Source: Escherichia phage vB_EcoM-Ro157c2YLVW. From it: a stretch of DNA of 64,000 nt. Both the position numbers and the translations under genes were made by a program. Below the pieces are notes generated by a model that was given only the letters and a program-made list of their open reading frames with translations, had not been told where the DNA came from and did no database searches. Of the stretch, positions 1,119 through 48,325 are shown piece by piece; the stretch's first letter is position 1, and every line of letters starts with the position of its first letter. The stretch is from sequence record NC_050153.1, one strand, 5' to 3'.

Positions 1119-4095
1119 TATTTAGCTCCTTTGCCACACCTAATAACAGTTCCAGCAATCCGTCACCATTCATCAGTGATGCGGCAGCGGCCTCTTTGTC
1201 ATGATACAACTGAAGAGCCATAGAGAATACTTCCGTTGCTGACGTTTTGGAAATAGTCGGTGATTTCTGCCGAATTTTCCCGGTGTTACTTACTGAGGCT
1301 GGCGGGTATACCTTCGCCATATAAATATTACTCAATCGAGATCTGAAGCACCATTCAGGCTTGCCACGCCCACCGATATTGACGAAAGATGGCTTATCCC
1401 CTTCAACATTGGCCTTCAGGAATGACCGGGCTTTCTCTAACAAACCTGGGTTACTGTACTCAAGATGATGACCCAGCTCGTGCCACAGTGCACTTGCATT
1501 TTCATCGTTCAAATTGACAGCAACAACACCATTAAGATTTGCATATGCCCTTCCCTGGTGGTGAACCACCTTTGATAAGGTCGAAATTTTACCGCCGGTC
1601 AGGCGATAAATATCAGCAAGTTCCTTGCGCAGGTCTATCCCACCATTCTGTCCAGCGCGGGCTTCTTCCACTTCTTCCGTGATAAAAGAGTCGGCCCACT
1701 CAAGAGCTTTTTCTTCAGATACGGATGAGTTGGCGATCGCACTGTTCATGGCGGATAACACTTTCTCGTGGACCGAACCCATACTTCGCTGATTCATTTG
1801 CCAGCGTGTCTGCGGGTTATATGAGAATCGCTTAAGTAGTTGGTCAAGATGCTCAAGTTCTTCTTCGCTGACATACTTTTTAGCCTCACCAATAATGCCG
1901 GGGAGAATATTGCCGTTAGGATTAAACGCTCGCGAAAGGAAGTGTTTCAGCGCCCCCATGCCCTCCGATGCTTCAATATCACCAATAACCCGGTTAACAA
2001 TGGCCGCACTCTTCGGATTAGCATCCGCCAACGCTCTGACTACAATTTGCAGGGACGATACGACCTCACGCTGCATATCCGTCCTGATCTCATCAATAAA
2101 CTCTGGCGTTATGCCGTGCTCTTTAAGGATATCCCTGCCTTCCGCCGTTACCCCATCGATATCACCGACATGTTTATTAACCCGACTTTGCAATGCCTTA
2201 AATGCCTTCAGAATTCCACGGGCATCATCCGCTTTACTAACGGCCTTCCTGAATGCTGGCAAGAAGTCTGAGTTAACCTCATTTTGTTGATCGGCCCACT
2301 GAATGGAGGCTTCTTTCATCTCGTCCAGAGTCAGATCACCCAACGCGGTATGGTCTGTGAATATGAGCGATAACCTCTGAACCATTTCTGCCAATGGTGA
2401 TGCCGAATGCGCCGCGCTAAGGAATGCTTTCACCCTGGTTGGGCGAATGGAAAACCAGTCAATAGCTGGTGGCATATCTCCGTTTTTTATCGCCTGCGCT
2501 ATCTCGTCAAAGCCATCGCGCCCAAGGGAGGATGCGTGATTTAACAAGCCGCGAAGTAACGAATTGCTGATACCGAATAATCGGCACCATTTTTTCACGT
2601 CGGCAACAGGCATTCGAACAAAATGCGCAAGCACTTGAACAAGCTGTTCATCCTGGGGATCTGTACGGGAAAGCAGCCTGATCAGATGAATAATGTCTTT
2701 GATGCCGGATGCCCGATGTAATAGCAAACTGGTATACGGAGCAACACCGTTGTAACTACCGCCGGAAACGGACTCGAAAAGACCGCCGGATATCCCTTGC
2801 ATGCCTTCGTTTTCCAGTTCCTGAGACACCTGGCGAAGGATATCCTGTAACGACACATCGCCGCCGCCAAACATATCCCCCAGCGCCTGGCCCTGGTGCT
2901 GTAACTCATCATTGATACGTTGCGCCATCAACTTAAAGGCGGTGGCCATACGCTTCGCGCTACGGTTATTCGCGACGATGAACAACGCGAGTGCTTTCAC
3001 TTCCGGGGCCGTTTCGCTGAACATATCCCCCTGAGCAATAACATCGGTAATATGCTGGCCTGACTCCTTCGATTGCCTTACCAGGTCTACCGCATCTTTC
3101 AATGCCGCCAGCGCCTTTTTATCGAGGCTATCCGCTGTCTCAATGCCATCAACAATAGTTGTCACAGCCTGCTTGTGCGCTTCTCCTGATAAAGCCTGCA
3201 TCTGGACAAAATCATTGGCTGCCGCATTAAGCGCCGTCAGAACATTACGCATATCCGGATCAGGTTCTTCTGCAACCATCCTTACCAGGCGCGCATCCTT
3301 ATATGCCTTGGCAAAGATCGCGTTTTGTATACGGTCTACAAGTTGCCGTGTTGGTCGCCCATCTTCAGTTACAAGGCCAGCCGCCTGTGTGGCACCAACT
3401 TGCGTCATAAATCCGCGAATAAACGCGTCATTACTGCGGCTAAGCAGATCTCCGCTTTCTGACGGGTTAAAAAGCGCCATCATCGCCGGTGTTATGCTGT
3501 CGGCATCAACAAAAGCCTTTTCACTGGCTGCCATTTCCTGAAGATCAGAAATATTTGAGTCCTTGGCAAACTGAACGCGGTCAACCTTAGTTAACCGGCG
3601 GCGCACCAGTACCGGAGCCGTCATTGATTCAACCTTTTCAGGTCGTATGCCGAATTCGGTCGCATGATCAATCAGGTACTCACGATACCGATCCGCATTG
3701 CCGTCCTGATAGGCTTTGATGATCCCCATGGTCCGTCCATTACCTGACTCAACGGCATTGTCCTCACCAATTATCGGCGCACCATGGCTGGATAAACCGG
3801 AATCAGTAAGCTGAGCAGGCCGCAAATCTTTGGATATCTGGTTAACCTGAAGAAGGCTGGATGCGCGGGTCCGGTCGCGCGGCTGAAGTTCCTGGGGATA
3901 GTCAGGATTAATTTTCCCATCCAGAGTATTGGATACCAAAAGAGCTGAGGCATCGACGATATCAAACGCTGTTTTTACCTCGTCTCCCTTCGCTGTCACC
4001 ACATACGAAACCCGCCCATAATCGGGCAGGTTCTTTAGCAGCTCGATCAGCGTTTCTATGCTGGTGGCCATTACCACCTGATCGCTTAAGCTCAT
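1108..4095 (-). CDS. large virion/antirestriction-operon protein (DdrB-like) with C-terminal HExxH zincin-like motif
   Basis: 995-aa ORF; motif WHELGHHLEY near C-terminus; position downstream of DarA/DdrA-like genes matches the P1 darA operon order as recalled. Confidence 0.6.
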   Translation of the reverse strand: MSLSDQVVMATSIETLIELLKNLPDYGRVSYVVTAKGDEVKTAFDIVDASALLVSNTLDGKINPDYPQELQPRDRTRASSLLQVNQISKDLRPAQLTDSGLSSHGAPIIGEDNAVESGNGRTMGIIKAYQDGNADRYREYLIDHATEFGIRPEKVESMTAPVLVRRRLTKVDRVQFAKDSNISDLQEMAASEKAFVDADSITPAMMALFNPSESGDLLSRSNDAFIRGFMTQVGATQAAGLVTEDGRPTRQLVDRIQNAIFAKAYKDARLVRMVAEEPDPDMRNVLTALNAAANDFVQMQALSGEAHKQAVTTIVDGIETADSLDKKALAALKDAVDLVRQSKESGQHITDVIAQGDMFSETAPEVKALALFIVANNRSAKRMATAFKLMAQRINDELQHQGQALGDMFGGGDVSLQDILRQVSQELENEGMQGISGGLFESVSGGSYNGVAPYTSLLLHRASGIKDIIHLIRLLSRTDPQDEQLVQVLAHFVRMPVADVKKWCRLFGISNSLLRGLLNHASSLGRDGFDEIAQAIKNGDMPPAIDWFSIRPTRVKAFLSAAHSASPLAEMVQRLSLIFTDHTALGDLTLDEMKEASIQWADQQNEVNSDFLPAFRKAVSKADDARGILKAFKALQSRVNKHVGDIDGVTAEGRDILKEHGITPEFIDEIRTDMQREVVSSLQIVVRALADANPKSAAIVNRVIGDIEASEGMGALKHFLSRAFNPNGNILPGIIGEAKKYVSEEELEHLDQLLKRFSYNPQTRWQMNQRSMGSVHEKVLSAMNSAIANSSVSEEKALEWADSFITEEVEEARAGQNGGIDLRKELADIYRLTGGKISTLSKVVHHQGRAYANLNGVVAVNLNDENASALWHELGHHLEYSNPGLLEKARSFLKANVEGDKPSFVNIGGRGKPEWCFRSRLSNIYMAKVYPPASVSNTGKIRQKSPTISKTSATEVFSMALQLYHDKEAAAASLMNGDGLLELLLGVAKELNNAD

Positions 4096-39571: not shown

Positions 39572-40469
39572 GCACTGGAAAAACATTACTATTTATAAAC
39601 TTTCTCGTGAGGCGGATCTGACCGACTTAGAAGATAAAAAGAAAATGATCCTTTTCACGCCATGCGGTAGTCAGGATATGGCCAAGTTCGGTTTTGTATC
39701 GCCATTTGGTGATAATTCTGAAGTTATCGCTATGCATGGAAATGGTTTTATCCTTGTTGAAGCAAAGCGCGAAACAAAAATTCTTCCCCCGCCGGTTATC
39801 CAGCGAGCTATTCAAGAAAAAATTGAAAAACTTGAGCAAGAACAAGCGCGTAAACTGAAGAAAACAGAGAAGGACTCCCTGAAAGACGAAGTTCTGCATT
39901 CTCTTCTGCCACGGGCTTTTTCAAAGTTTTCTGTTATCCAGGCGATCTACGACGGTTCAACTAAACGTATCTATATCAATGCCAGCGCGCGGCAGGCAGA
40001 GGATATGCTCGCGCTTATGCGTAAGTCTCTGGGTTCTCTTCCTGCTGTTCCCCTGAGTGTTGAAAATCCCATTGAATTAACGCTGACCGACTGGGTACGT
40101 GATGGTAGTGCTCCACAGGGATTTCAAATGGGGGATGCGGCAGAACTTAAGGCAGTGCTTGAGGATGGCGGTATTGCCCGAGTGAAAAAGCAGGATTTGG
40201 GAAGCGATGAAATTTCCACACACCTGGAAGCTGGCAAGCTCGTCACTAAGTTGGCACTCGACTGGCAGAACCGCATTAAATTTACACTGGACCATAACTT
40301 CAGCCTTACCAGCGTCAAATTTGCGGATGAATTGCTTGAGCAGAACTCTGATATTGATAGTGAAGATGTTGCGCAGCGACTGGACGCAGATTTCTTCCTG
40401 TTGACCAGTGAAATTTCGTGCCTGGTTGATGCTCTGGTAAATGCCCTTGGCGGAGAGGCTAAGCAGTGA
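39564..40469 (+). CDS. rdgC: recombination-associated protein RdgC homologue
   Basis: N-terminus and most of the length near-collinear with E. coli RdgC as recalled (...[11 protein letters not shown]...RKSLGSLP...[10 protein letters not shown]...DLRQNEDID...); start at internal ATG 39564 (track ORF 39450 over-extended). Confidence 0.8.
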
Positions 40470-43400
40470 AAGAGCTGTGCTATGGATCTGTTTGCAGTGG
40501 AATTGAAGCCGCGAGTATTGCCTGGGAACCGTTGGGTATGCGTCCGGCGTGGTTTGCTGAAATCGAGCCTTTTCCATCGGCCGTTCTTGCGCTCCGCTGG
40601 CCCCATGTTGCCAACCTTGGCGACATGAAAAAACTTGCCAAAAAAGTCTTGGCTGGGGAAATCGAATCCCCTGACGTGCTCGTCGGGGGAACACCATGTT
40701 TTACCGCGGGGCATATGGTTCTTTGTAAAAATGGCTATAAACCAATAGAAAATGTTTGCCCTGGTGATTACGTAGTCAGTCATCTCGGGCGGTTACAACA
40801 AGTAAAAAGAGTTGGTTCAAAAATAGCTAATACGGGGTTACTTAATGCCGTTGGGCAGCCTTTAGGTATAAGAACAACCAATGACCATCCCTTCCTGGCT
40901 GTTCGGTGGAAAGCCCAAAACACCCGGAAAAATGGCACATATTTTAAGAGAGAGTTGTTGTCTGAACCGGAATGGCGAGCAGCATGTGATATGCCGGGAT
41001 ATCAATGGTGCGCTCTAACTAATTTCAATATTGCATTTCCAGATATTTGTTCTCGGTTCTTGTCTGAAGAACAGGCTATGTATCTTGCGGGCGCTTATGT
41101 TGGCGATGGATATATTAGGAGATGGAGAGGTAAATCTAAGAAGGCGGTTGTTTTTGGCATAAATTGCCAGAAATTGAGAAAGTTTCATTGCCGCATACCA
41201 GAAAACATATTTTCCGTGGCAAGCGAAATCCGAGGGAGCATCAAAGTAACCTTGAATGATACGTGTTATGCCAATTGGCTTAATGAACATTTTGGCGAGT
41301 TAAGCCATGCTAAGCGTATCCCTGCATGGGTGATGTCGCATCCATTGCGTCATGTGTTTTTACAAGGCTATCTTGATACTGATGGGACACCAAGTGGTAA
41401 AGCGGGATTTAGAATTAATAGTGTTAGTTCTGCGCTTGCTTGGGGCGTTGCGGGGTTGTCACAGACTTGTGGTTATGTTTCTTCGGTCAGCTTTATTGAA
41501 GTTGAGCCCAAAAAAGTGATCGAGGATCGCGTGGTAAATCAACGGAATTATTATCAGGTAACAATCTGCCCGCAGAAATTGTCACGTAAATCAAGATTGG
41601 CTCATGGAATGCTTTTACGAACAGTCAAAGAGTTTAAATCGGTAGGCCTAGATACTGTATACAACATAGAAGTCGAAGGTGATCATTCCTATATCCTCAA
41701 TGGTGCGGTGGTCCATAACTGTCAGGCATTCAGTATCGCGGGATTACGTGGTGGGCTTGATGATGAGCGTGGCGCGCTAACTTTAAAGTATGTGGAGCTT
41801 GCAAATGCAATTGACGACAAACGGGCTGAGTCATTTCTCAAACCAGCCGTTATCGTCTGGGAAAATGTCCCAGGAGTCTTGTCATCGGCAGATAACGCCT
41901 TCGGATGTTTCCTTGCCGGATTGGCTGGAGAAGATGTGCCATTTGAACCAGGTGATCGACCTGAATCAGGAAAAAGCAACGCGTTCTGGCGGTGGGATGG
42001 CAAAACCGGTTGCCATGTTCCAAAGTGGCCGCAGTGTGGTTGTATTTATGGACCGCAGCGAAAAGTGGCCTGGAGAATCCTTGATGCCCAATACTTCGGA
42101 GTGGCACAACGACGCCGACGCGTGTTTGTTGTCGCAAGTGCTCGAACAGATCTCGATCCCGCAACGGTACTTTTTGAGTTCGAAGGCGTGCGCCGGAATA
42201 TTGCGCCGAGCCGAAAAAAGAAGGAAATCGCTTCCGCCATTATTGCAAATGGCGCTGCAATCAGTGGCGAAAGCCTAAATCCATGCCTACACGCTGACAT
42301 GCCACCCGGTATGAAATCGACGAAAGCCGTAAACGCTTTCAGGATGGCAGCATTTGGGGAATATATTGACGATGAAACCGCATCGACAGTAAAGGCAAGA
42401 GATTTTAAAGATGCCACTGACCTTGCCGTTTTTAGCAGCACAGGAGCAGGTTTTTGGTCAGAAGGGCATGGTACATTGCGGGCACGTGAGCAAGAAAGCC
42501 ATGAGCATCTTGTTACATTGGCTTTTCCTGAGCGTATGAGCGGTACACAACATGCTGCAACTAAGAATACTTCACCATCTCTAATGGCTAAAAATCCAAC
42601 AGCTGTTTGCTATGAAGTAAGAAACGCAGAAGTAGCTGTCCGCCGTCTTACCCCTGTCGAATGTGAAAGGCTGCAAGGTTTTCCTGAGGGGCATACGTTG
42701 ATCCCGACGGAAAAGCGTAAAAAAGTTTCTTCAGATGAACTGGCATACCTTCGCAATCACTATCCAGATTTAAGCGAAGAAGAGGCCGCGATGCTTGCAG
42801 CTGACGGACCGCGTTACAAAGCGATCGGCAATAGTATGGCAATACCAGTAATGCGCTGGATTGGCGATCGGATTACTAAGGCCGTATGTCGGCAGAAAGA
42901 AGGAAGTGAAACAAAAGAGCGAAAAGTTAAACCAGCGGCAGAATTCGAACGGTCCATATTCAAATGGGCTGGTGGAAAATTTGGTGTTCTGGAACAAATC
43001 TTTCGCTATTTGCCAGAAGGGAAGCGCCTGATTGAACCTTTCGTTGGTGGCGGAGCTGTCTTCATGAATGCCGGATACCAGGAAAATCTGCTAAATGATG
43101 TGAATGCTGACCTGATTAACTTTTACAAGACTCTGCAACGCGAGGCGCATTCACTTATCACTCTGGCACATCGTTTCTTCCAGGACTACAACACACAGGA
43201 AGGATACCTGGCAGTACGGAATGCGTTTAACAAACAAGTCTATGATGATTTACATCGCGCAGCGGCGTTTTTGTTCCTGAACCGACATTGTTTTAACGGA
43301 TTGACGCGTTACAACCAGGCCGGTGAGTTCAATGTCGGTTATGGGAAGTATAAAACTCCGTATTTCCCATTACAGGAGATGGAAGCCTTCCTCGGTGCGG

Positions 43401-43753
43401 AAGGGCGGTCTGAGTTTGTATGCGGTGATTTTGCAGCGGTGATTGAAGCTGCCGGAGAAGGAGATGTCATCTTTTGCGATCCGCCGTATGAACCGCTTCC
43501 AAATACAGAGGGATTCACGAACTATTCCGGTCATGACTTTAAGTTTGAAGAGCAAAAACGCCTGGTGTCTCTGTTGACGGATGCTCATCGTCGAGGTGCA
43601 AAGGTTCTCATTACTAACAGTGGCGCGCCAAACATCAGAGAGCTTTATCATGACAGTGGCTTCAGAGTGGAACCTCTTTTTGCCAGACGTTCTGTGTCTT
43701 GTAAGGGGGACACTCGAGGTGTAGCTCATGACGTTTTGGGTATATTGCTCTAA
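40466..43753 (+). CDS. dmt: bifunctional DNA methyltransferase: N-terminal C5-cytosine MTase (intein-interrupted) fused to C-terminal Dam-like N6-adenine MTase
   Basis: C5 motifs: motif IV GGTP|CQAFS (split by intein), ENV (VIVWENVPG), [13 protein letters not shown]; Dam domain from ~42945 with KWAGGK and DPPY motifs. Confidence 0.85.
40697..41719 (+). mobile_element. intein (341 aa) with LAGLIDADG homing-endonuclease domain, inserted at the catalytic Cys of the C5-MTase
   Basis: Begins with Cys (CFTAGHMV...), block [17 protein letters not shown] motifs [11 protein letters not shown] and [11 protein letters not shown], terminal ...NGAVVHN followed by Cys+1; excision restores GGTPCQAFS. Confidence 0.85.
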
Positions 43754-43760
43754 TAAATTT
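43744..43760 (+). promoter_or_regulatory. repressor operator (perfect ATTGCTCTAATAAATTT) overlapping the dmt stop codon
   Basis: Perfect 17-mer; downstream TGTAAT -10-like hexamer; heads the tRNA-plp-ban operon. Confidence 0.6.
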
Positions 43761-44425
43761 ATTAGTGTAATATCACCTCAATGAATCGTGATTTATAGAG
43801 CGATTTAGCTGTTAGCCGCGACAGGCGCGGCGGTAAGCATGGCTGGGCCTAGTCCTCCCAGACAAACCACCGAGTTGCCAGGTTGACCATGCGCCTAAGT
43901 GGCAACGCCGAAGTGCGTTACGAGCGTCCAGTTTGCCCATCTTCGGGTGGGCGTTTTTTTCAGGGTTTTCGTCATGGTTAGCGACTTTGCGGCGGTTTAG
44001 AAACTGACCATTAAAGTAAATGCAAACGATGATCTGATGATGGTAGCGGCCTAAGAAGCCAGATGCCATGGGGTATGAGTCGTCCCCCGTCAAAAAATCG
44101 ACCGCAGAGTGTCCCCGTCTGTGTATTAGGGAACGGGGAGGCACAACAGGTAAGGGCGCTGGTGTGATTAACCAGATGAACGAGAAGGGGCCATCTGTTG
44201 GTCAGCGTCCTTTCCTGTTGCGTTTTCTTTTCAGCGTAACAGCGGTGCTTAACAGCACTTTGGGTACAGTTCCACGAATTTACGGGTATATCCCGTCATG
44301 CTGAAGGCGCTAATCACGCTGGAAGCCAGGGTTATGCATCCCCTGTTACCGAATTGCAGCCAGGGCGCGGTGCGCCGAAAAGCATACGGAGGTGGAAGCC
44401 CTCGCCGGAGACGTACCCGGCAAGT

Positions 44426-44500
44426 GATGGTGTAGCTCAGCGGTAGAGCAGTTGGCTGTTAACCAACTGGTCGGTAGTTCGAATCCACCCACCATCGCCA
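44426..44500 (+). tRNA. tRNA-Asn (anticodon GTT)
   Basis: Cloverleaf: acceptor GATGGTG/CACCATC, D-arm GCTCAGCGGTAGAGC, anticodon loop CTGTTAA, T-loop TTCGAAT, encoded CCA. Confidence 0.75.
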
Positions 44501-44505
44501 CTTTA

Positions 44506-44592
44506 GGGGAGTTAGTCCGTAGGGGTAGCGGGGTAGACTGTAAATCTACTGTCATTGCGACTCGGGTGGTTCGACTCCATCACTCCCCACCA
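44506..44592 (+). tRNA. class II tRNA-like gene with GTA anticodon (tRNA-Tyr-like), atypical D-arm
   Basis: Acceptor GGGGAGT/ACTCCCC, anticodon stem-loop GTAGA-CTGTAAA-TCTAC, long variable arm hairpin, T-loop TTCGACT, encoded CCA; D-stem only 3 bp with 4-nt spacer. Confidence 0.55.
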
Positions 44593-44596
44593 CATT

Positions 44597-44672
44597 GCCG
44601 ATTTAGCTCAGTTGGTAGAGCAGTCGCTTTGTAAGCGAATGGTCAGCGGTTCGATCCCGTTAATCGGCACCA
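44597..44672 (+). tRNA. tRNA-Thr (anticodon TGT)
   Basis: Acceptor GCCGATT/AATCGGC, D-arm GCTCAGTTGGTAGAGC, anticodon loop TTTGTAA, T-loop TTCGATC, encoded CCA. Confidence 0.75.
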
Positions 44673-45532
44673 ACATAACAGGTAAGAGCATTCTCCCTTA
44701 TGGGGCCTGGCTTAAATGCATCGAGTGCTCTTACCGTTGTGATGAAGTGCAGATCTTAGAAGCAACCAGAAGATAAGCATCTGGCTTCACAACATAAACC
44801 GCAGGAACGACCAATAAACGGTAGTCCGTATGGAGAACACCCCGTTGAGGAAGAGGCCTGGCCGGAACCGTAACCGGCGACTGGTAATGTGTGTAAATGG
44901 AGCGAAATATGTGGGCGTTTAACGGGATACGGGTTGTAACAGCGATTATTAACGGCGAACTTAAGTATTCACGTTTCGAGACAAATGAACGTGATGGGAA
45001 ATGTATTGGTGTGCGGTTAGTAAGAGAATACGCATAACAACTACAACGTTGAGAACACTGGCGTAACGGGGTCATATCCCAATCTACGAATAAATGTTGC
45101 GTTGCCGCGTGACAACCAGTGTTCTCAACATTGTGGTGAATGCACAGGCTGATGTGCCGCAACTACAGTAGTGCGCGCTTTGCGGGGCTTGCTACAACCC
45201 TGTGTCGGAGTTCAGCACCGACCATCACAGTTTGATTCTCTGGCATGAGCATAACGCTGAAATAAGTCCAGTCTGGTGCGGTCTGATCACCCGCCGTTAG
45301 CTCCACGAAACGGAGCACGTAACAGGTAAGAGCATTCTCCTGTAACAATCTACAGGTCCACCAAGAATGCTCTTTCCGTTGCGGTGAATGCGGCTAAGCG
45401 CACGCGGGGAAATGGTTATATCTGTCCATTATTTCTCCTTGTTTCCACGTCCACGGTGGATAACCAGCCAAAGGACACCGGGAGGAACCCGGCACCGCAG
45501 CTTTTTTATTCGTTAAATAATGGAGTGAGAGG

Positions 45533-45769
45533 ATGCAGAACAATCCGAACAAATGTCGAACGCTATGGGTGCGGTTATATATTTATGCCGTCCTCTGTTT
45601 GATTGTGTCACTGGTTCTGTATGTTTGGCTTTTGCCAAATATGATCTCATCTAACAGCACAATACTTGTATTGTTGGGAGTCCTTCTCGCGCTCATTTAC
45701 CCGGCTTTCGCAGTAGTCTTTTTTCGTGAAAAAACCAGGAAATTAATTAATGAAAAAAACGTTGATTAG
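45533..45769 (+). CDS. small membrane protein (two TM helices)
   Basis: 78-aa ORF upstream of and overlapping the SPFH lipoprotein gene. Confidence 0.5.
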   Translation: MQNNPNKCRTLWVRLYIYAVLCLIVSLVLYVWLLPNMISSNSTILVLLGVLLALIYPAFAVVFFREKTRKLINEKNVD

Positions 45770-46577
45770 TGCAGCGATTATTTTGGGTTCTTTATGTCTG
45801 ACCGGATGCGATCGGGTAGAGCCAGGTAACGTAGGGATCAAAGTAAATAAGCTGGGGGATGATAAAGGTATCGGTGAAGTAGTTGGCGTTGGTCGCTACT
45901 GGACAGGCTTGAATACTGAAGTTTATATCTTCCCGACCTTTAAGCAAATGAAGACATACGATGAGCCGTTCAGCTTCCAGATGAGCGACGGAACAACCAT
46001 TGGTTACCACATCGGCGTAGCCTACAAGGTTGATCCAGCAAAAGTCACAACGGTATTTCAGACCTATCGCAAAGGTGTAGATGATATTACTGATACCGAT
46101 CTACGCCAGAAGGTTGCAGATGCTCTGAACCGATTAGCCAGCAAAATGACCACCGACAAATTTATCGACGGTGGCAAATCTGAATTGCTTGATGCAGCCC
46201 TTAAAGACATTCAGGAAGAAATGACGCCAATCGGCATTCAGGTGATGAGCCTCTCTTATGTAGGTAAGCCAGAATACCCGCCAACAGTTATTGACAGTAT
46301 TAACGCCAAAGTCACGGCAAACCAAAAAACCCTGCAACGCGAGCAAGAGGTCAAACAACGTGAAGCAGAGGCCAACATGCTGCGCGCGGAAGCTGCCGGA
46401 CAGGCTGATGCTATTCGCACAAAAGCCCAGGCCGAAGCTGATGCCATTCGTTTACGTGGTGAAGCTCTGCGCCAGAACCCCGGTGTTATGGACTTGGAAG
46501 CGATCAACAAATGGAACGGTACATTACCGCAGTATATGACCAGTAATACCGCTGTTCCGTTTGTTCCGGTGAAATAA
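45750..46577 (+). CDS. SPFH/band-7 (prohibitin-like) domain lipoprotein
   Basis: Lipobox LCLTGC after signal peptide MKKTLISAAIILGS; SPFH-like core followed by Ala/Gln/Glu-rich coiled coil. Confidence 0.65.
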   Translation: MKKTLISAAIILGSLCLTGCDRVEPGNVGIKVNKLGDDKGIGEVVGVGRYWTGLNTEVYIFPTFKQMKTYDEPFSFQMSDGTTIGYHIGVAYKVDPAKVTTVFQTYRKGVDDITDTDLRQKVADALNRLASKMTTDKFIDGGKSELLDAALKDIQEEMTPIGIQVMSLSYVGKPEYPPTVIDSINAKVTANQKTLQREQEVKQREAEANMLRAEAAGQADAIRTKAQAEADAIRLRGEALRQNPGVMDLEAINKWNGTLPQYMTSNTAVPFVPVK

Positions 46578-46604
46578 AAGCGTAAGCAAAATTGGCAGTA
46601 ATCC

Positions 46605-46680
46605 GGCCCTTTAGCTCAGTGGTTAGAGCTGGCGACTCATAATCGCACGGTCACCGGTTCAAGTCCGGTAGGGGCCACCA
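46605..46680 (+). tRNA. tRNA with CAT anticodon, Ile2 (lysidine)-type by resemblance to E. coli ileX; elongator Met not excluded
   Basis: Acceptor GGCCCTT/AGGGGCC, D-arm GCTCAGTGGTTAGAGC, anticodon arm GGCGACTCATAATCGC, T-loop TTCAAGT, encoded CCA. Confidence 0.7.
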
Positions 46681-46916
46681 TATTTGGTTGTAACACGGCG
46701 TCTGGCACATGCGTCGTTAGCGGTCTGGTGACGTTAAAGGGGTAACCTTTCCCCTAGCTCAGGCAACAAACCAGGTAGCCGGAATGTGCAAGCCCCGTTC
46801 ATAGCGTCGGACTGCGGATTCACCATCCTGGCGATTCGGTGTGACAGCCGGGAAGAGTCCGGCGCATTAATCCTGATTTTCTGGTGATGACTCATATCGT
46901 TAGGAGTGATTTGAGT

Positions 46917-46961
46917 ATGCCGATTATATCTGACATTCAGCACGCCTGGGTGGAGTGCTAA
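46917..46961 (+). CDS. 14-codon leader ORF (MPIISDIQHAWVEC) coupled to ban
   Basis: AGGAG RBS 9 nt upstream of the ATG; stop TAA overlaps the ban ATG (TAATG). Confidence 0.25.
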   Translation: MPIISDIQHAWVEC

Positions 46962-48325
46962 TGTCTGCATCCCCTCTTGAATCCATGCCAAATTCCCTTA
47001 GTGCAGAACAAGCTGTACTTGGTGGCTTAATGCTTGATAACTGCCGCTGGGATGAAGTTGCAGATCGTATAGTTGCTGATGATTTTTATACCAGTGCTCA
47101 TCGTGAAATTTTCAGTGAGATGGAGAGGTTATTAAGTCATGGCAAACCGATTGATTTGATAACACTTGCTGAAGCACTTGAACAGAACGGTAAATTAGAA
47201 CGCGCCGGTGGTTTTGCGTACCTTGCGGAGATGTCAAAGAACACGCCCAGCGCGGCAAATATTTGTGCTTATGCGGATATCGTTCGTGAACGCGCGGTTG
47301 TTCGTGAAATGATTTCCGTCGCAAATGAAATAGCTGAAGCTGGATATGCGCAGGATGGCAGGGGCAGCAATGAATTGCTGGATATGGCCGAGCGCCGCGT
47401 TTTTGAAATAGCTGAAAAACGACAAAAGAGCGGTAGTGGTCCAAAAGATATCGCCAGCATTCTCGATGCAACGGTATCTCGCATAGAAGAGTTGTTTCAG
47501 CGACCGCATGATGGTGTAACGGGGCTTGATACCGGATTTACCGATCTCAATAAGAAGACGGCAGGACTTCAGGCGTCCGATCTCATTATTGTCGCCGCCC
47601 GCCCATCGATGGGGAAGACTACGTTTGCGATGAATCTCGTCGAAAATGCCGCAGTCCGTAACGATAAGCCCGTATTGGTTTTTAGCCTTGAGATGCCGAG
47701 CCACCAACTGATGATGCGCTCACTGGCTTCTCTTGCACGCGTTGATCAGACTCGTATTCGAACAGGGCAACTTAACGACGAGGATTGGGCGCGGGTTTCT
47801 GGCGCAATGGGGATTCTGTTGGACAAGCAGAATATTTTTATTGATGACTCAAGCGCCCTGACACCTACAGAGCTTCGTTCCCGCGCTCGTCGTGTTTATA
47901 AAGAAAATGGTGGTTTGAGCATGATTATGATCGACTACCTGCAACTTATGCGCGTCCCCGAGCTGCAAGATAACCGAACGCTGGAAATTGCCGAGATTTC
48001 TCGCTCACTGAAGGCTTTGGCGAAGGAATTACAAGTACCGGTGGTGGCATTGTCACAACTTAATCGATCGCTTGAACAGCGTGCGGACAAACGACCGGTA
48101 AATTCAGATTTACGTGAATCAGGAGCAATTGAGCAGGACGCAGACCTGATTATGTTTCTGTATCGCGACGAAGTTTATCACCCGGATAGCGAAATGAAGG
48201 GCATTGCCGAGGTAATTATCGGAAAGCAACGAAATGGCCCAATTGGCACGGTGAGATTGGCTTTTAACGGCCAATACTCACGGTTTGATAACTATGCCGG
48301 TGCTGACTGGCAAGAGGATTATTAA
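46961..48325 (+). CDS. ban: replicative DNA helicase, DnaB family (Ban-like)
   Basis: Near-collinear with E. coli DnaB as recalled (Walker A ARPSMGKTTFAMN, ...LSQLNRSLEQRADKRP..., ...IIGKQRNGPIGTV...); GGAG RBS before ATG 46961. Confidence 0.9.
   Translation: MSASPLESMPNSLSAEQAVLGGLMLDNCRWDEVADRIVADDFYTSAHREIFSEMERLLSHGKPIDLITLAEALEQNGKLERAGGFAYLAEMSKNTPSAANICAYADIVRERAVVREMISVANEIAEAGYAQDGRGSNELLDMAERRVFEIAEKRQKSGSGPKDIASILDATVSRIEELFQRPHDGVTGLDTGFTDLNKKTAGLQASDLIIVAARPSMGKTTFAMNLVENAAVRNDKPVLVFSLEMPSHQLMMRSLASLARVDQTRIRTGQLNDEDWARVSGAMGILLDKQNIFIDDSSALTPTELRSRARRVYKENGGLSMIMIDYLQLMRVPELQDNRTLEIAEISRSLKALAKELQVPVVALSQLNRSLEQRADKRPVNSDLRESGAIEQDADLIMFLYRDEVYHPDSEMKGIAEVIIGKQRNGPIGTVRLAFNGQYSRFDNYAGADWQEDY

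Follow-up and report, generated by a model that had tools for sequence, protein, structure and literature searches.

The window analysed here, 64,000 nucleotides (nt) of Escherichia phage vB_EcoM-Ro157c2YLVW (NC_050153.1), is part of a P1-type phage-plasmid, and its positions 43700-44500 are 98% identical to positions 68623-69423 of phage P1 (AF234172). The stretch 43761-44425 corresponds to the non-coding leader of the C1-repressed ban operon, located between dmt and the tRNA-Asn gene in the P1 record. Annotation of the stretch in that record is limited to the operator Obanab (Op72ab), the promoters P1ban and P2ban, and a miscellaneous 'dicF-like region'. We focus on a segment of the leader, designated module (b), which is a structured RNA with a template region resembling that of transfer-messenger RNA (tmRNA) and a 5' domain predicted to pair with the tmRNA of the host.

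A preliminary description of this DNA, based on the letters alone, had proposed a GC-rich leader free of credible protein genes, preceded by an operator and promoter and followed by a tRNA cluster. These proposals held. The operator sequence ATTGCTCTAATAAATTT and its inverted partner are directly readable in the window and belong to the annotated Obanab (Op72ab) with P1ban/P2ban. The -10 hexamer TGTAAT occupies positions 43766-43771, and transcription would start at about 43778. Between the dmt stop codon (43753) and the start of tRNA-Asn (44426), only short open reading frames (ORFs) of 78 residues (+), 110 residues (-), and 45 residues (+) are present; none has a Pfam match or is kept in the homologous elements of other phages. 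The GC content of the leader is 53.2%, versus 47.5% for the whole window. The tRNA cluster was confirmed, and the leader and the tRNAs form one transcription unit downstream from Pban, as had been suggested. The leader is best explained as a string of non-coding RNA modules, designated (a) to (c), transcribed, when P1 is no longer lysogenic, from the Pban promoter that C1 represses (Table 1).

Table 1. Features of the ban leader and its borders, with positions in the window.
Feature	Position	Strand	Basis or remark
Bivalent C1 operator Obanab (Op72ab), overlapping P2ban/P1ban	43744-43771	+	98-99% identity to P1 AF234172, which annotates these features
Module (a), DicF-locus-like structured leader or small RNA	43778-43960	+	P1 annotation, Evi homology, terminator scan
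Hairpins of module (a)	43815-43831, ~43841-43863, 43874-43906	+	
Intrinsic terminator, end of module (a)	Stem 43934-43953 (8 pairs), T7 43954-43960	+	Terminator scan; G+C-rich hairpin followed by T-run
5' domain of module (b), GGGUUUUCGUC-AUG-GUU-A-GCGACUUUGCGGC-GG-UUUA-G	43963-44000	+	Antisense to host tmRNA
Single-stranded A-rich linker ending in UAAAU	44001-44021	+	AGAAAC..ACCA..AA..UAAAU invariant in all copies
Tag frame GCA AAC GAU GAU CUG AUG AUG GUA GCG GCC UAA (ANDDLMMVAA)	44022-44054	+	Rfam alignment, 10-codon frame
Helix-5-like hairpin, stop codon in apical loop	44040-44069	+	Covariation
Helix-5-like outer stem	44040-44043/44066-44069	+	4/4 pairs changed on both sides; 100% of cells paired
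Helix-5-like inner stem	44048-44050/44058-44060	+	77% of cells paired
H-type pseudoknot, A-rich loop 3	44069-44102	+	Covariation
Pseudoknot stem 1	44069-44073/44085-44089	+	99.1% paired; 3 pairs changed on both sides
Pseudoknot stem 2	44079-44082/44099-44102	+	97.4% paired; 3/3 pairs changed on both sides
Hairpin with conserved loop, stem UCCCCGU/ACGGGGA	44112-44139 (44112-44118/44133-44139)	+	Covarying stem versions
Long hairpin closing module (b), candidate processing site	Arms 44144-44161/44203-44220	+	18-nt inverted repeat, 89% complementary
Module (c), P1-lineage spacer or pre-tRNA leader	44223-44425	+	Only P1, P7, D6, SJ46, ~99% identity
tRNA-Asn(GTT), tRNA-Tyr(GTA), tRNA-Thr(TGT)	44426-44672	+	ARAGORN, Rfam

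Distant BLAST comparisons revealed that positions 43964-44143 are 70-88% identical to unannotated DNA of very different phages. The relatives included Ackermannviridae (phiEa2809, Ag3, PWKp5, Salmonella phage 38, and Serratia 2050H1), the N4-like phage Bp4, the T1-like phages C1, Sf11, Akira, and ESP2949-1, and an Aeromonas phage. Scanning of IMG/VR with an exact pattern identified module (b) in at least 120 contigs of P1-like, T1-like, Vi1-like, and N4-like phages and of lambdoid prophages. Module (b) occurs across five phage groups or families with little else in common. A covariance model built for this study detected exactly one copy per locus, with scores of 127-202 bits (134.8 bits for the copy of the window, 43963-44145). 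In RefSeq, module (b) was found in 660 of the 5426 complete E. coli genomes (583 places on P1-like plasmids and 140 on chromosomes), where annotation is absent apart from an occasional hypothetical protein. The chromosomal copies that were examined belong to lambdoid prophages and lie between the genes for the Q antiterminator and the holin, with no tRNA nearby; they are located immediately downstream from pR' and its terminator. In T1-like phages, a TTGACA-17-TAGATT promoter is located directly upstream from module (b), and phage C1 has a terminator about 450 nt downstream from it.

Module (b) spans positions 43963-44222 and is about 180 nt in length, or 260 nt with its closing hairpin. The interval is clearly conserved: conservation starts abruptly at GTTTTCG (43965) and ends past the long hairpin. 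Base pairing was assessed in a covariance-model-based alignment of 101 copies (67 distinct), which was needed since plain MAFFT with RNAalifold recovered pseudoknot stem 1 only. For the helix-5-like hairpin and the pseudoknot taken together, 94.5% of the cells were paired, versus 30-49% in slid controls, and 12 of the 15 pairs were changed on both sides; none of 500 shuffles reached these values. The last hairpin of the P1-type copies was misregistered in the alignment, and its stems were counted by script. About ten complementary stem versions were obtained among 66 unique sequences (for example GCCCG/UGGGC, UCCCUGA/UCAGGGA, GGCGGGAGG/UCUCCCGCC, and AUCCG/UGGAU), around a loop that reads CUGUGUAUUAGGGA in P1 and GUGUGAUUAAUAA in most other copies. 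RNAalifold detected no covarying helix in the linker of about 21 nt that separates the 5' domain from the resume codon, and no pseudoknot 1. Since both pseudoknot stems, the outer helix-5 stem, and the last hairpin covary, module (b) is a structured RNA. The covariation of these four helices across unrelated phage families, together with compensatory changes in module (a), bears out the preliminary suggestion that the stretch encodes one or more structured RNAs. The same description had listed repeated CCCCGTC/GACGGGG elements. CCCCGTC does occur at 44085 and 44113, but exact GACGGGG is absent, the corresponding arm being AACGGGG (44132-44138). These 'repeats' are the 3' strand of a pseudoknot stem and both arms of the covarying hairpin.

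Rfam searches, also proposed in the preliminary description, aligned module (b) with tmRNA models, always below the gathering threshold. For the P1 copy, tmRNA_permuted (RF04321) scored 24.1 bits and RF00023 scored 7.7 bits (gathering threshold of 47 in both cases), and both alignments fell on UAAAU GCA AAC GAU ... GCC UAA, the tag-coding part. Four other phages also gave sub-threshold scores (25-33 bits versus 47, and 15-19 versus 84 for beta_tmRNA). In P1 and these four unrelated phages, the tmRNA_permuted, beta_tmRNA, and alpha_tmRNA models aligned only to the resume, tag, and pseudoknot part. A search for a bacterial donor, covering 185,579 species with one genome each, yielded copies on prophages or P1-like elements, chance matches within genes, and nothing else. 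No bacterial ssrA in this set carries the motif of module (b), which argues against a recent ssrA donor. Recent capture of an enterobacterial ssrA gene was also considered and rejected, as same-sense similarity to E. coli ssrA was limited in local alignments to the resume and tag region. Neither Rfam 15 nor RefSeq annotation nor the searchable literature yielded a description of this RNA, of its tag sequences, or of a template-only phage relative of tmRNA. We judge module (b) to be a new, unannotated RNA family that derives from tmRNA without being a member of the tmRNA family.

The tag frame of module (b) has a constant length, since exactly ten codons followed by a stop codon were found in 126 of the 126 copies. 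The main tags were ANDDLMMVAA (P1 group), ANDDVVLMAA, ANEEMYLAVA, ANDDLMLMAA, and ANDEQFLAVA. In total, 32 nucleotide alleles encoded 17 tag peptides of the form AN[DE][DEN]xxxx[AV]A, in which AN(D/E) is not independent evidence because the first eight bases of the ORF were set by the search pattern. Synonymous and nonsynonymous codon differences amounted to 622 and 2011 in the tag frame, versus 83 and 2665, and 422 and 2350, in the other frames. Variation was highest at the third positions of codons 3, 4, 9, and 10, and the stop codons TAA and TAG were interchanged. This pattern of substitutions shows constraint of the coding type on the tag frame. The sequence UAAAU followed by GCA was invariant in all copies, with a U at -5 and an A at -4, like U85 and A86 of E. 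coli tmRNA, which set the reading frame on that molecule (PMC2481249). Decoding of the tag frame would thus proceed in a tmRNA-like manner. The most divergent copy, present in Aeromonas phage pAh6-C (L143 561-726; 88.6 bits), encodes the tag ANDDLMLAAA.

The invariant first 38 nt of module (b), containing the blocks GUUUUCG and GCGACUUUGCGG, are antisense to nt 67-107 of E. coli tmRNA and are predicted to form one colinear duplex with it. Duplexes were computed with RNAduplex against ssrA of E. coli K-12 (L130:794-1156), with 500 natural windows of 363 nt as background. The target spans loop 3 and the 3' strand of stem 2 of pseudoknot 1, the A-run, the -1 triplet, the resume codon GCA, and codons 2 to 6. 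In the duplex, (U/C)AGUUUUCGU(C) pairs with (G)ACGAAAACU(A), corresponding to codons 3 to 6 of tmRNA, and GUU pairs with AAC, corresponding to codon 2. GCGAC(U) pairs with (A)GUCGC, formed by the -1 triplet and the leading GC of the resume codon. UUUGCGG pairs with CCGCAAA, formed by the 3' strand of stem 2 and the A-run, and (C)UUUUUA pairs with UAAAAA(G) in loop 3. The host sequence AAAUA, including U85 and A86, is bulged out. The duplexes comprised 30-33 bp with energies of -32 to -40 kcal/mol (30 bp and -37.5 kcal/mol for P1). For five variants, including those of T1-like and lambdoid phages and of Bp4, zero or one of the 500 background windows performed as well (z = -3.9 to -6.0). Sliding 24-nt duplex energies alone did not discriminate, GC-rich windows scoring alike.

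Variation among copies follows the predicted pairing. The best duplex was formed at the same host site by 98% of 66 unique sequences. The pairing columns were invariant, while the unpaired linker or bulge columns were variable in length and had an entropy of 1.2-1.9 bits. Changes within the blocks keep wobble pairing to the fixed partner (GCGAC to GCGGC, GCGAU, or GUGGC; AG to GG), and Bp4-type copies split the two upstream blocks into 7 and 5 pairs instead of 6 and 6. The computed duplex of the 5' domain with host tmRNA was 9-19 kcal/mol stronger than that with the downstream part of the same RNA. Conservation of the target segment extends over three types of enterobacterial tmRNA, those of E. 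coli and Pantoea and the ANDETYALAA type, the last of which came from viral contigs. On tmRNAs of the ANDETYALAA type, which we take to be those of Salmonella, UAG and CAG seeds lose about 4.5 kcal/mol and GGG and AGG seeds lose 1-2 kcal/mol. These seed-specific losses are at most suggestive of host-specific covariation. Together, these comparisons reveal a predicted complementarity to the template region of host tmRNA that is strong and conserved. Homology of the 5' domain with the 5' half of tmRNA (GAUUCGAC...UUUGCG...AAAC) was considered and rejected, as it involved about 14 nt in three short blocks versus 30-33 bp of antisense pairing.

A tRNA-like domain was searched for by several approaches, including ARAGORN and Rfam scans of all loci, and no consistent partner emerged. 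ARAGORN, which detects permuted tmRNAs, was applied to the window and to over 140 related loci and called no tmRNA in any of them; the controls, ssrA of E. coli, of Pantoea, and of three ANDETYALAA-type loci, were all found. No T-loop motif was detected between -1.5 and +2 kb at many copies of module (b), and the complete 46.7-kb genome of phage C1 contained no tRNA, tRNA-like domain, or canonical T-arm. The 5' end GUUUUCG had no conserved downstream complement across loci; neither the CGAAAA of P1 (44375) nor the GAAAAC of phage C1 is general among them. Likewise, no constant neighbour among the loci, and nothing in the C1 genome, qualified as the adjacent acceptor piece of a two-piece tmRNA. 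Because it has no tRNA-like domain, module (b) does not belong among the tmRNAs, whether of the one-piece or the two-piece type. The 2014 survey of the tmRNA Website, which covered RefSeq viruses and plasmids, listed phage ssrA genes only in mycobacteriophages and Bacillus phage G, plus a fragment in DS6A restricted to the tRNA-like domain, and reported nothing in P1 or in T1-, Vi1-, or N4-like phages (PMC4131195).

Two types of sequence found beside some copies deserve mention. Loci L009, L011, and L049 contain downstream strings resembling the 3' end of tmRNA (...GGUUGAUCUCCAGCCGUCAGCUCCAC... and ...GGGUUGAUCUCCAGCCGUCAGCUCCAC...). These candidates were rejected, being devoid of Rfam support and absent from most loci. 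In the IMG/VR loci L011, L029, L049, and L065, a tRNA-like cargo lacking the anticodon arm (...CGACGUCGGAGAUCGCCAUUAUUGGUAGAGGGUUCGAAUCCCUAC...) is located in a long hairpin next to module (b), with no ARAGORN call.

We see an even chance that module (b) acts on host trans-translation by pairing with tmRNA. In the mechanism that we favour, Pban transcripts that read through the terminator of module (a) would continue into module (b), which would be released at the flanking long hairpins; lambdoid phages would release it from the late transcript and T1-like phages from a transcript of their own. The 5' domain would then anneal to host tmRNA, opening stem 2 of pseudoknot 1 and covering the resume codon and the first codons. 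Base pairing of the resume region has been reported to inactivate tmRNA (PMC2481249). At minimum, tagging by the host would be blocked. If the template were merely blocked, rescued ribosomes would find no stop codon, which would account for the provision by module (b) of its own resume signal, tag, and stop. In this reading, module (b) retains all that a resuming ribosome requires of a tmRNA template: the U at -5 and the A at -4, the GCA resume codon, a ten-codon tag with a hydrophobic-Ala-Ala end, a stop codon in a helix-5-like loop, and a pseudoknot downstream. Tethered to the tRNA-like domain of the host, it would offer these signals in place of those of tmRNA, and rescue would continue with products tagged by ANDDLMMVAA (or ANDDVVLMAA or ANEEMYLAVA) instead of ANDENYALAA. 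Such a true tag swap, involving a chimeric tmRNA made of two RNAs, in which the host provides the alanine-charged tRNA-like domain and the phage provides the template, is a possibility that we put forward tentatively. ANDENYALAA is a degron for ClpXP and SspB; the phage tags keep the terminal alanine and alter the residues read by ClpX and SspB. The altered residues could spare the tagged products from proteolysis. That module (b) is expressed as a discrete RNA, pairs with tmRNA in vivo, and swaps the tag is what we infer.

Several observations weigh against this proposal. In P1 itself the complementarity is only moderate with respect to the background (7 of 500 windows as good, z = -2.5), and for a Klebsiella Vi1-like copy 12 of the 500 windows were as good. 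In the minimum-free-energy structures of several variants, the 5' domain can fold back onto the beginning of the tag frame of the same RNA. Of the complementarity to E. coli tmRNA, only block 1 is left in the Aeromonas phage copy: in pAh6-C, the UAGUUUUCGUC block is retained and the rest of the 5' domain differs (CAGCAAUACGCGUCUGUUUUUA) upstream from the shared GACGAAAACUA. Viral contigs did not contain the tmRNA target predicted for Aeromonas. The resume codon of the phage RNA would lie, in the hybrid, about 21 nt past the 3' end of the antisense domain, and the provision of a template in trans to a one-piece tmRNA is without precedent to our knowledge. Expression of module (b) in P1 would depend on read-through, since an intrinsic terminator sits immediately upstream. 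Finally, the proposal gives no account of module (c), which can be classed only as a lineage-specific spacer or pre-tRNA leader.

The evidence for mimicry and complementarity also applies to a decoy that, by imitating the mRNA-like domain and pseudoknot of tmRNA, titrates SmpB, S1, RNase R, or the mRNA channel of the ribosome, or an antisense inhibitor that triggers cleavage of host tmRNA by RNase III or RNase E, the tag frame never being translated. A 30-bp duplex is a plausible substrate of RNase III. Titration of SmpB has been proposed for the tRNA-like fragment of DS6A (PMC4131195), and the inactivating effect of a paired resume region, cited above, points in the same direction (PMC2481249). 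Neither a decoy nor an inhibitor needs an invariant length of ten codons, interchange of TAA and TAG, or an excess of synonymous differences, although helix 5 also constrains part of the frame. We regard this explanation as unlikely but worth serious attention. Far less probable is that module (b) forms the coding piece of a genuine two-piece tmRNA of the permuted type, with the acceptor piece encoded elsewhere or provided by tRNA-like cargos. The permuted two-piece models do give the best Rfam matches, and L011, L029, L049, L065, and L123 carry tRNA-like cargos or T-arm-like hairpins beside module (b). These observations have to be set against the ARAGORN results, the many loci devoid of a T-loop motif, and the C1 genome, which lacks any tRNA, tRNA-like domain, or canonical T-arm. 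In addition, the 5' strand (x)AGUUUUCG has no conserved downstream partner, most registers offer no G3:U70 pair, and antisense pairing with host tmRNA accounts better for the 5' domain.

A processed leader or spacer of the usual kind in phage tRNA operons, whose conservation would reflect only the joints of mobile cassettes or a decaying fragment of a captured ssrA gene without function, is about as improbable. It would agree with the usual location of module (b) in leaders that contain tRNAs and RNA modules flanked by the same inverted repeats, and with the behaviour of module (c) as a lineage-specific spacer. Drift does not fit four compensatory helices, invariant single-stranded blocks, and five phage groups; many copies have no tRNA nearby, and the 185,579 representative genomes contain no ssrA donor. 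The stretch might also encode small proteins, namely the 78-residue ORF (44068-44304, +), the 110-residue ORF (43812-44144, -), or a peptide of 5-9 residues starting at the AUG in UAAAUGCAA, and the records of JL22, SJ46, and certain RefSeq plasmids do show hypothetical proteins at this place. We give this explanation almost no credence: the ORFs have no Pfam match and are absent from the elements of other phages, whose conservation tracks the RNA helices, and the AUG frame is of variable length, shows the fewest synonymous differences, and has no readable Shine-Dalgarno sequence upstream.

Module (a) is already known as the 'dicF-like region' of P1, the annotation of which corresponds to window positions 43868-43969. 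Positions 43816-43910 matched lambdoid and Rac/Qin-type phages in distant BLAST comparisons. In phage Evi, the homologous segment (window 43816-43912) is located directly upstream from a genuine DicF small RNA (RF00039, 76.4 bits). Comparison of P1 and Evi revealed two compensatory stem changes, CUGGG/CCCAG versus CGGGG/CCCCG and GUUGCCA/UGGCAAC versus GUUGUCA/UGACAAC. No match to DicF (RF00039) was obtained in 43900-44520 (E<=10) or in 42000-48000 (E<=1), the copy of Evi serving as the positive control at 76.4 bits. Two hairpins had been singled out in the preliminary description. GCCGCG-ACAG-GCGCGGC exists, at 43815-43831 and thus about 9 nt away from the location of ~43806 given there. GCCCATC-TTCG-GGTGGGC, at 43935-43952, is followed by T7 (43954-43960) as described and scores as an intrinsic terminator. 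Module (a) probably yields a terminated small RNA of about 180 nt from Pban.

For module (c), no Rfam match was obtained, and conservation is uninformative because only near-identical copies of the P1 lineage exist. The fold z-score was a modest -2.7 for 44140-44425, a segment that includes the long hairpin. On its 3' side, the leader RNA would be delimited by RNase P cleavage at 44425/44426.

The arms of the long hairpin recur well beyond module (b). They also flank other RNA modules, at 44681-44693/44723-44735 in the window and in other phages, including T1-like, lambdoid, and other contigs, and the 5' arm has a direct repeat at 44674-44689. In unrelated phages, near-constant arms (CAyAACAGGTAAGrGC... 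and ...GCTCTTwCC(T)GTTG) bracket different RNA cargos: the tmRNA-like element, tRNAs, tRNA-like pieces, and unfamiliar inserts. The bracketing repeats are found at window positions 44144-44220 and 44674-44740, in L127 at 3421-3490 and 3668-3775, and at many IMG/VR loci. These long inverted repeats look like processing hairpins of the RNase III type, recombination joints of a shuffled array of RNA modules, or both. A sub-threshold match to STnc100 (RF02076; 38 bits versus a gathering threshold of 47) was detected at window positions 45380-45499 (+). STnc100 matches recur next to these modules in L129 (2675-2860), L003 (2701-2784), and L011 (4964-5121), and directly after DicF in Evi. The STnc100-like stretch thus resembles one more module that recurs in these leader arrays.

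Other differences from reference P1 were found around the leader. The dmt gene (40466-43753, +) encodes 1095 residues, versus 754 residues in reference P1. The insert contains a Hint domain (residues 77-126) and a LAGLIDADG domain (residues 298-361), is located within the catalytic PCQ motif of the C5-methylase half, and has the junctions GGTP/C...VVHN/CQAFSIAG; it is an intein with a homing endonuclease. The gene for tRNA-Tyr(GTA) (44506-44592, +), located between those for tRNA-Asn and tRNA-Thr, is absent in reference P1. Several P1-like contigs of IMG/VR do carry it, and in some of these tRNA-Arg(TCT) also takes the place of tRNA-Asn. Downstream from the tRNA cluster, the plasmid differs from reference P1 (plp, upl, tciABC). 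An ORF for a lipoprotein-like product of 275 residues with an Ala/Glu-rich C-terminal part (45750-46577, +) is followed by a tRNA gene with a CAT anticodon (46605-46680, +).

The tmRNA-SmpB system is the universal bacterial system for ribosome rescue and quality control, and several phages depend on it. If module (b) acts as proposed, phages manipulate trans-translation directly, for which no description was found in the searchable literature. If the tag swap is true, it would be the first natural reprogramming of trans-translation by a parasite and the first tmRNA template acting in trans. The hypothesis can be tested in E. coli K-12 with P1, lambdoid prophages, and T1-like phages. Module (b) also helps to explain a gap that has stood without annotation in the genome map of P1 for 20 years, and offers a new RNA family for annotation pipelines, which at present leave the region blank or call a hypothetical protein in the E. 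coli genomes that carry it. A portable natural means of altering the tmRNA tag could serve engineering.

Comparison with known systems defines what is shared and what is specific to the leader. The DicF locus of Qin/Rac-type prophages (RF00039) has in common with module (a) an upstream structured region and an end formed by a terminator hairpin; it differs in that P1 has an unrelated terminator hairpin in place of the DicF sequence, comprising seed and hairpin. Phage tRNA arrays in regulated leaders occupy the same niches as module (b) (the ban leader of P1, the late leader of lambdoid phages from Q to holin, and the tRNA regions of T1- and Vi1-like phages) and are likewise co-transcribed, whereas module (b) is not a tRNA and often has no tRNA nearby. 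In Shiga toxin (Stx) phages, tRNAs are located downstream from pR'. With tmRNA (RF00023, and the two-piece or permuted forms RF01849, RF01850, and RF04321), module (b) shares the resume signal, GCA followed by AAC GA(U/C/A), a tag of ten residues with the pattern ANDxxxxxAA, a helix-5-like hairpin that contains the stop codon, and an H-type pseudoknot directly downstream. In contrast to tmRNA, it has no acceptor stem, G3:U70 pair, T-arm, CCA end, or pseudoknot 1, is about 180 nt long versus about 360 nt, and scores below every gathering threshold. The 5' half of the tRNA-like domain is replaced by a 38-nt segment predicted to be antisense to host tmRNA.

The tmRNAs of the Bxz1 group of mycobacteriophages and of Bacillus phage G are likewise phage-borne derivatives of ssrA, but they are complete. 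DS6A is closer in that a single functional half of tmRNA is carried by a phage and has been proposed to interfere with trans-translation of the host (PMC4131195). It carries the tRNA-like half, whereas module (b) represents the opposite half, template and pseudoknot, joined to an antisense domain. A further parallel is offered by the prophages of enterohaemorrhagic E. coli (EHEC). Their AgvB and AsxR RNAs are anti-sRNAs, acting in trans on regulatory RNAs of the host. Module (b) shares with them an invariant seed-like 5' segment complementary to an abundant non-coding RNA of the host. In the case of module (b), the target would be tmRNA, the complementarity is far longer (30-33 bp in blocks), and a translatable template of the tmRNA type is added.

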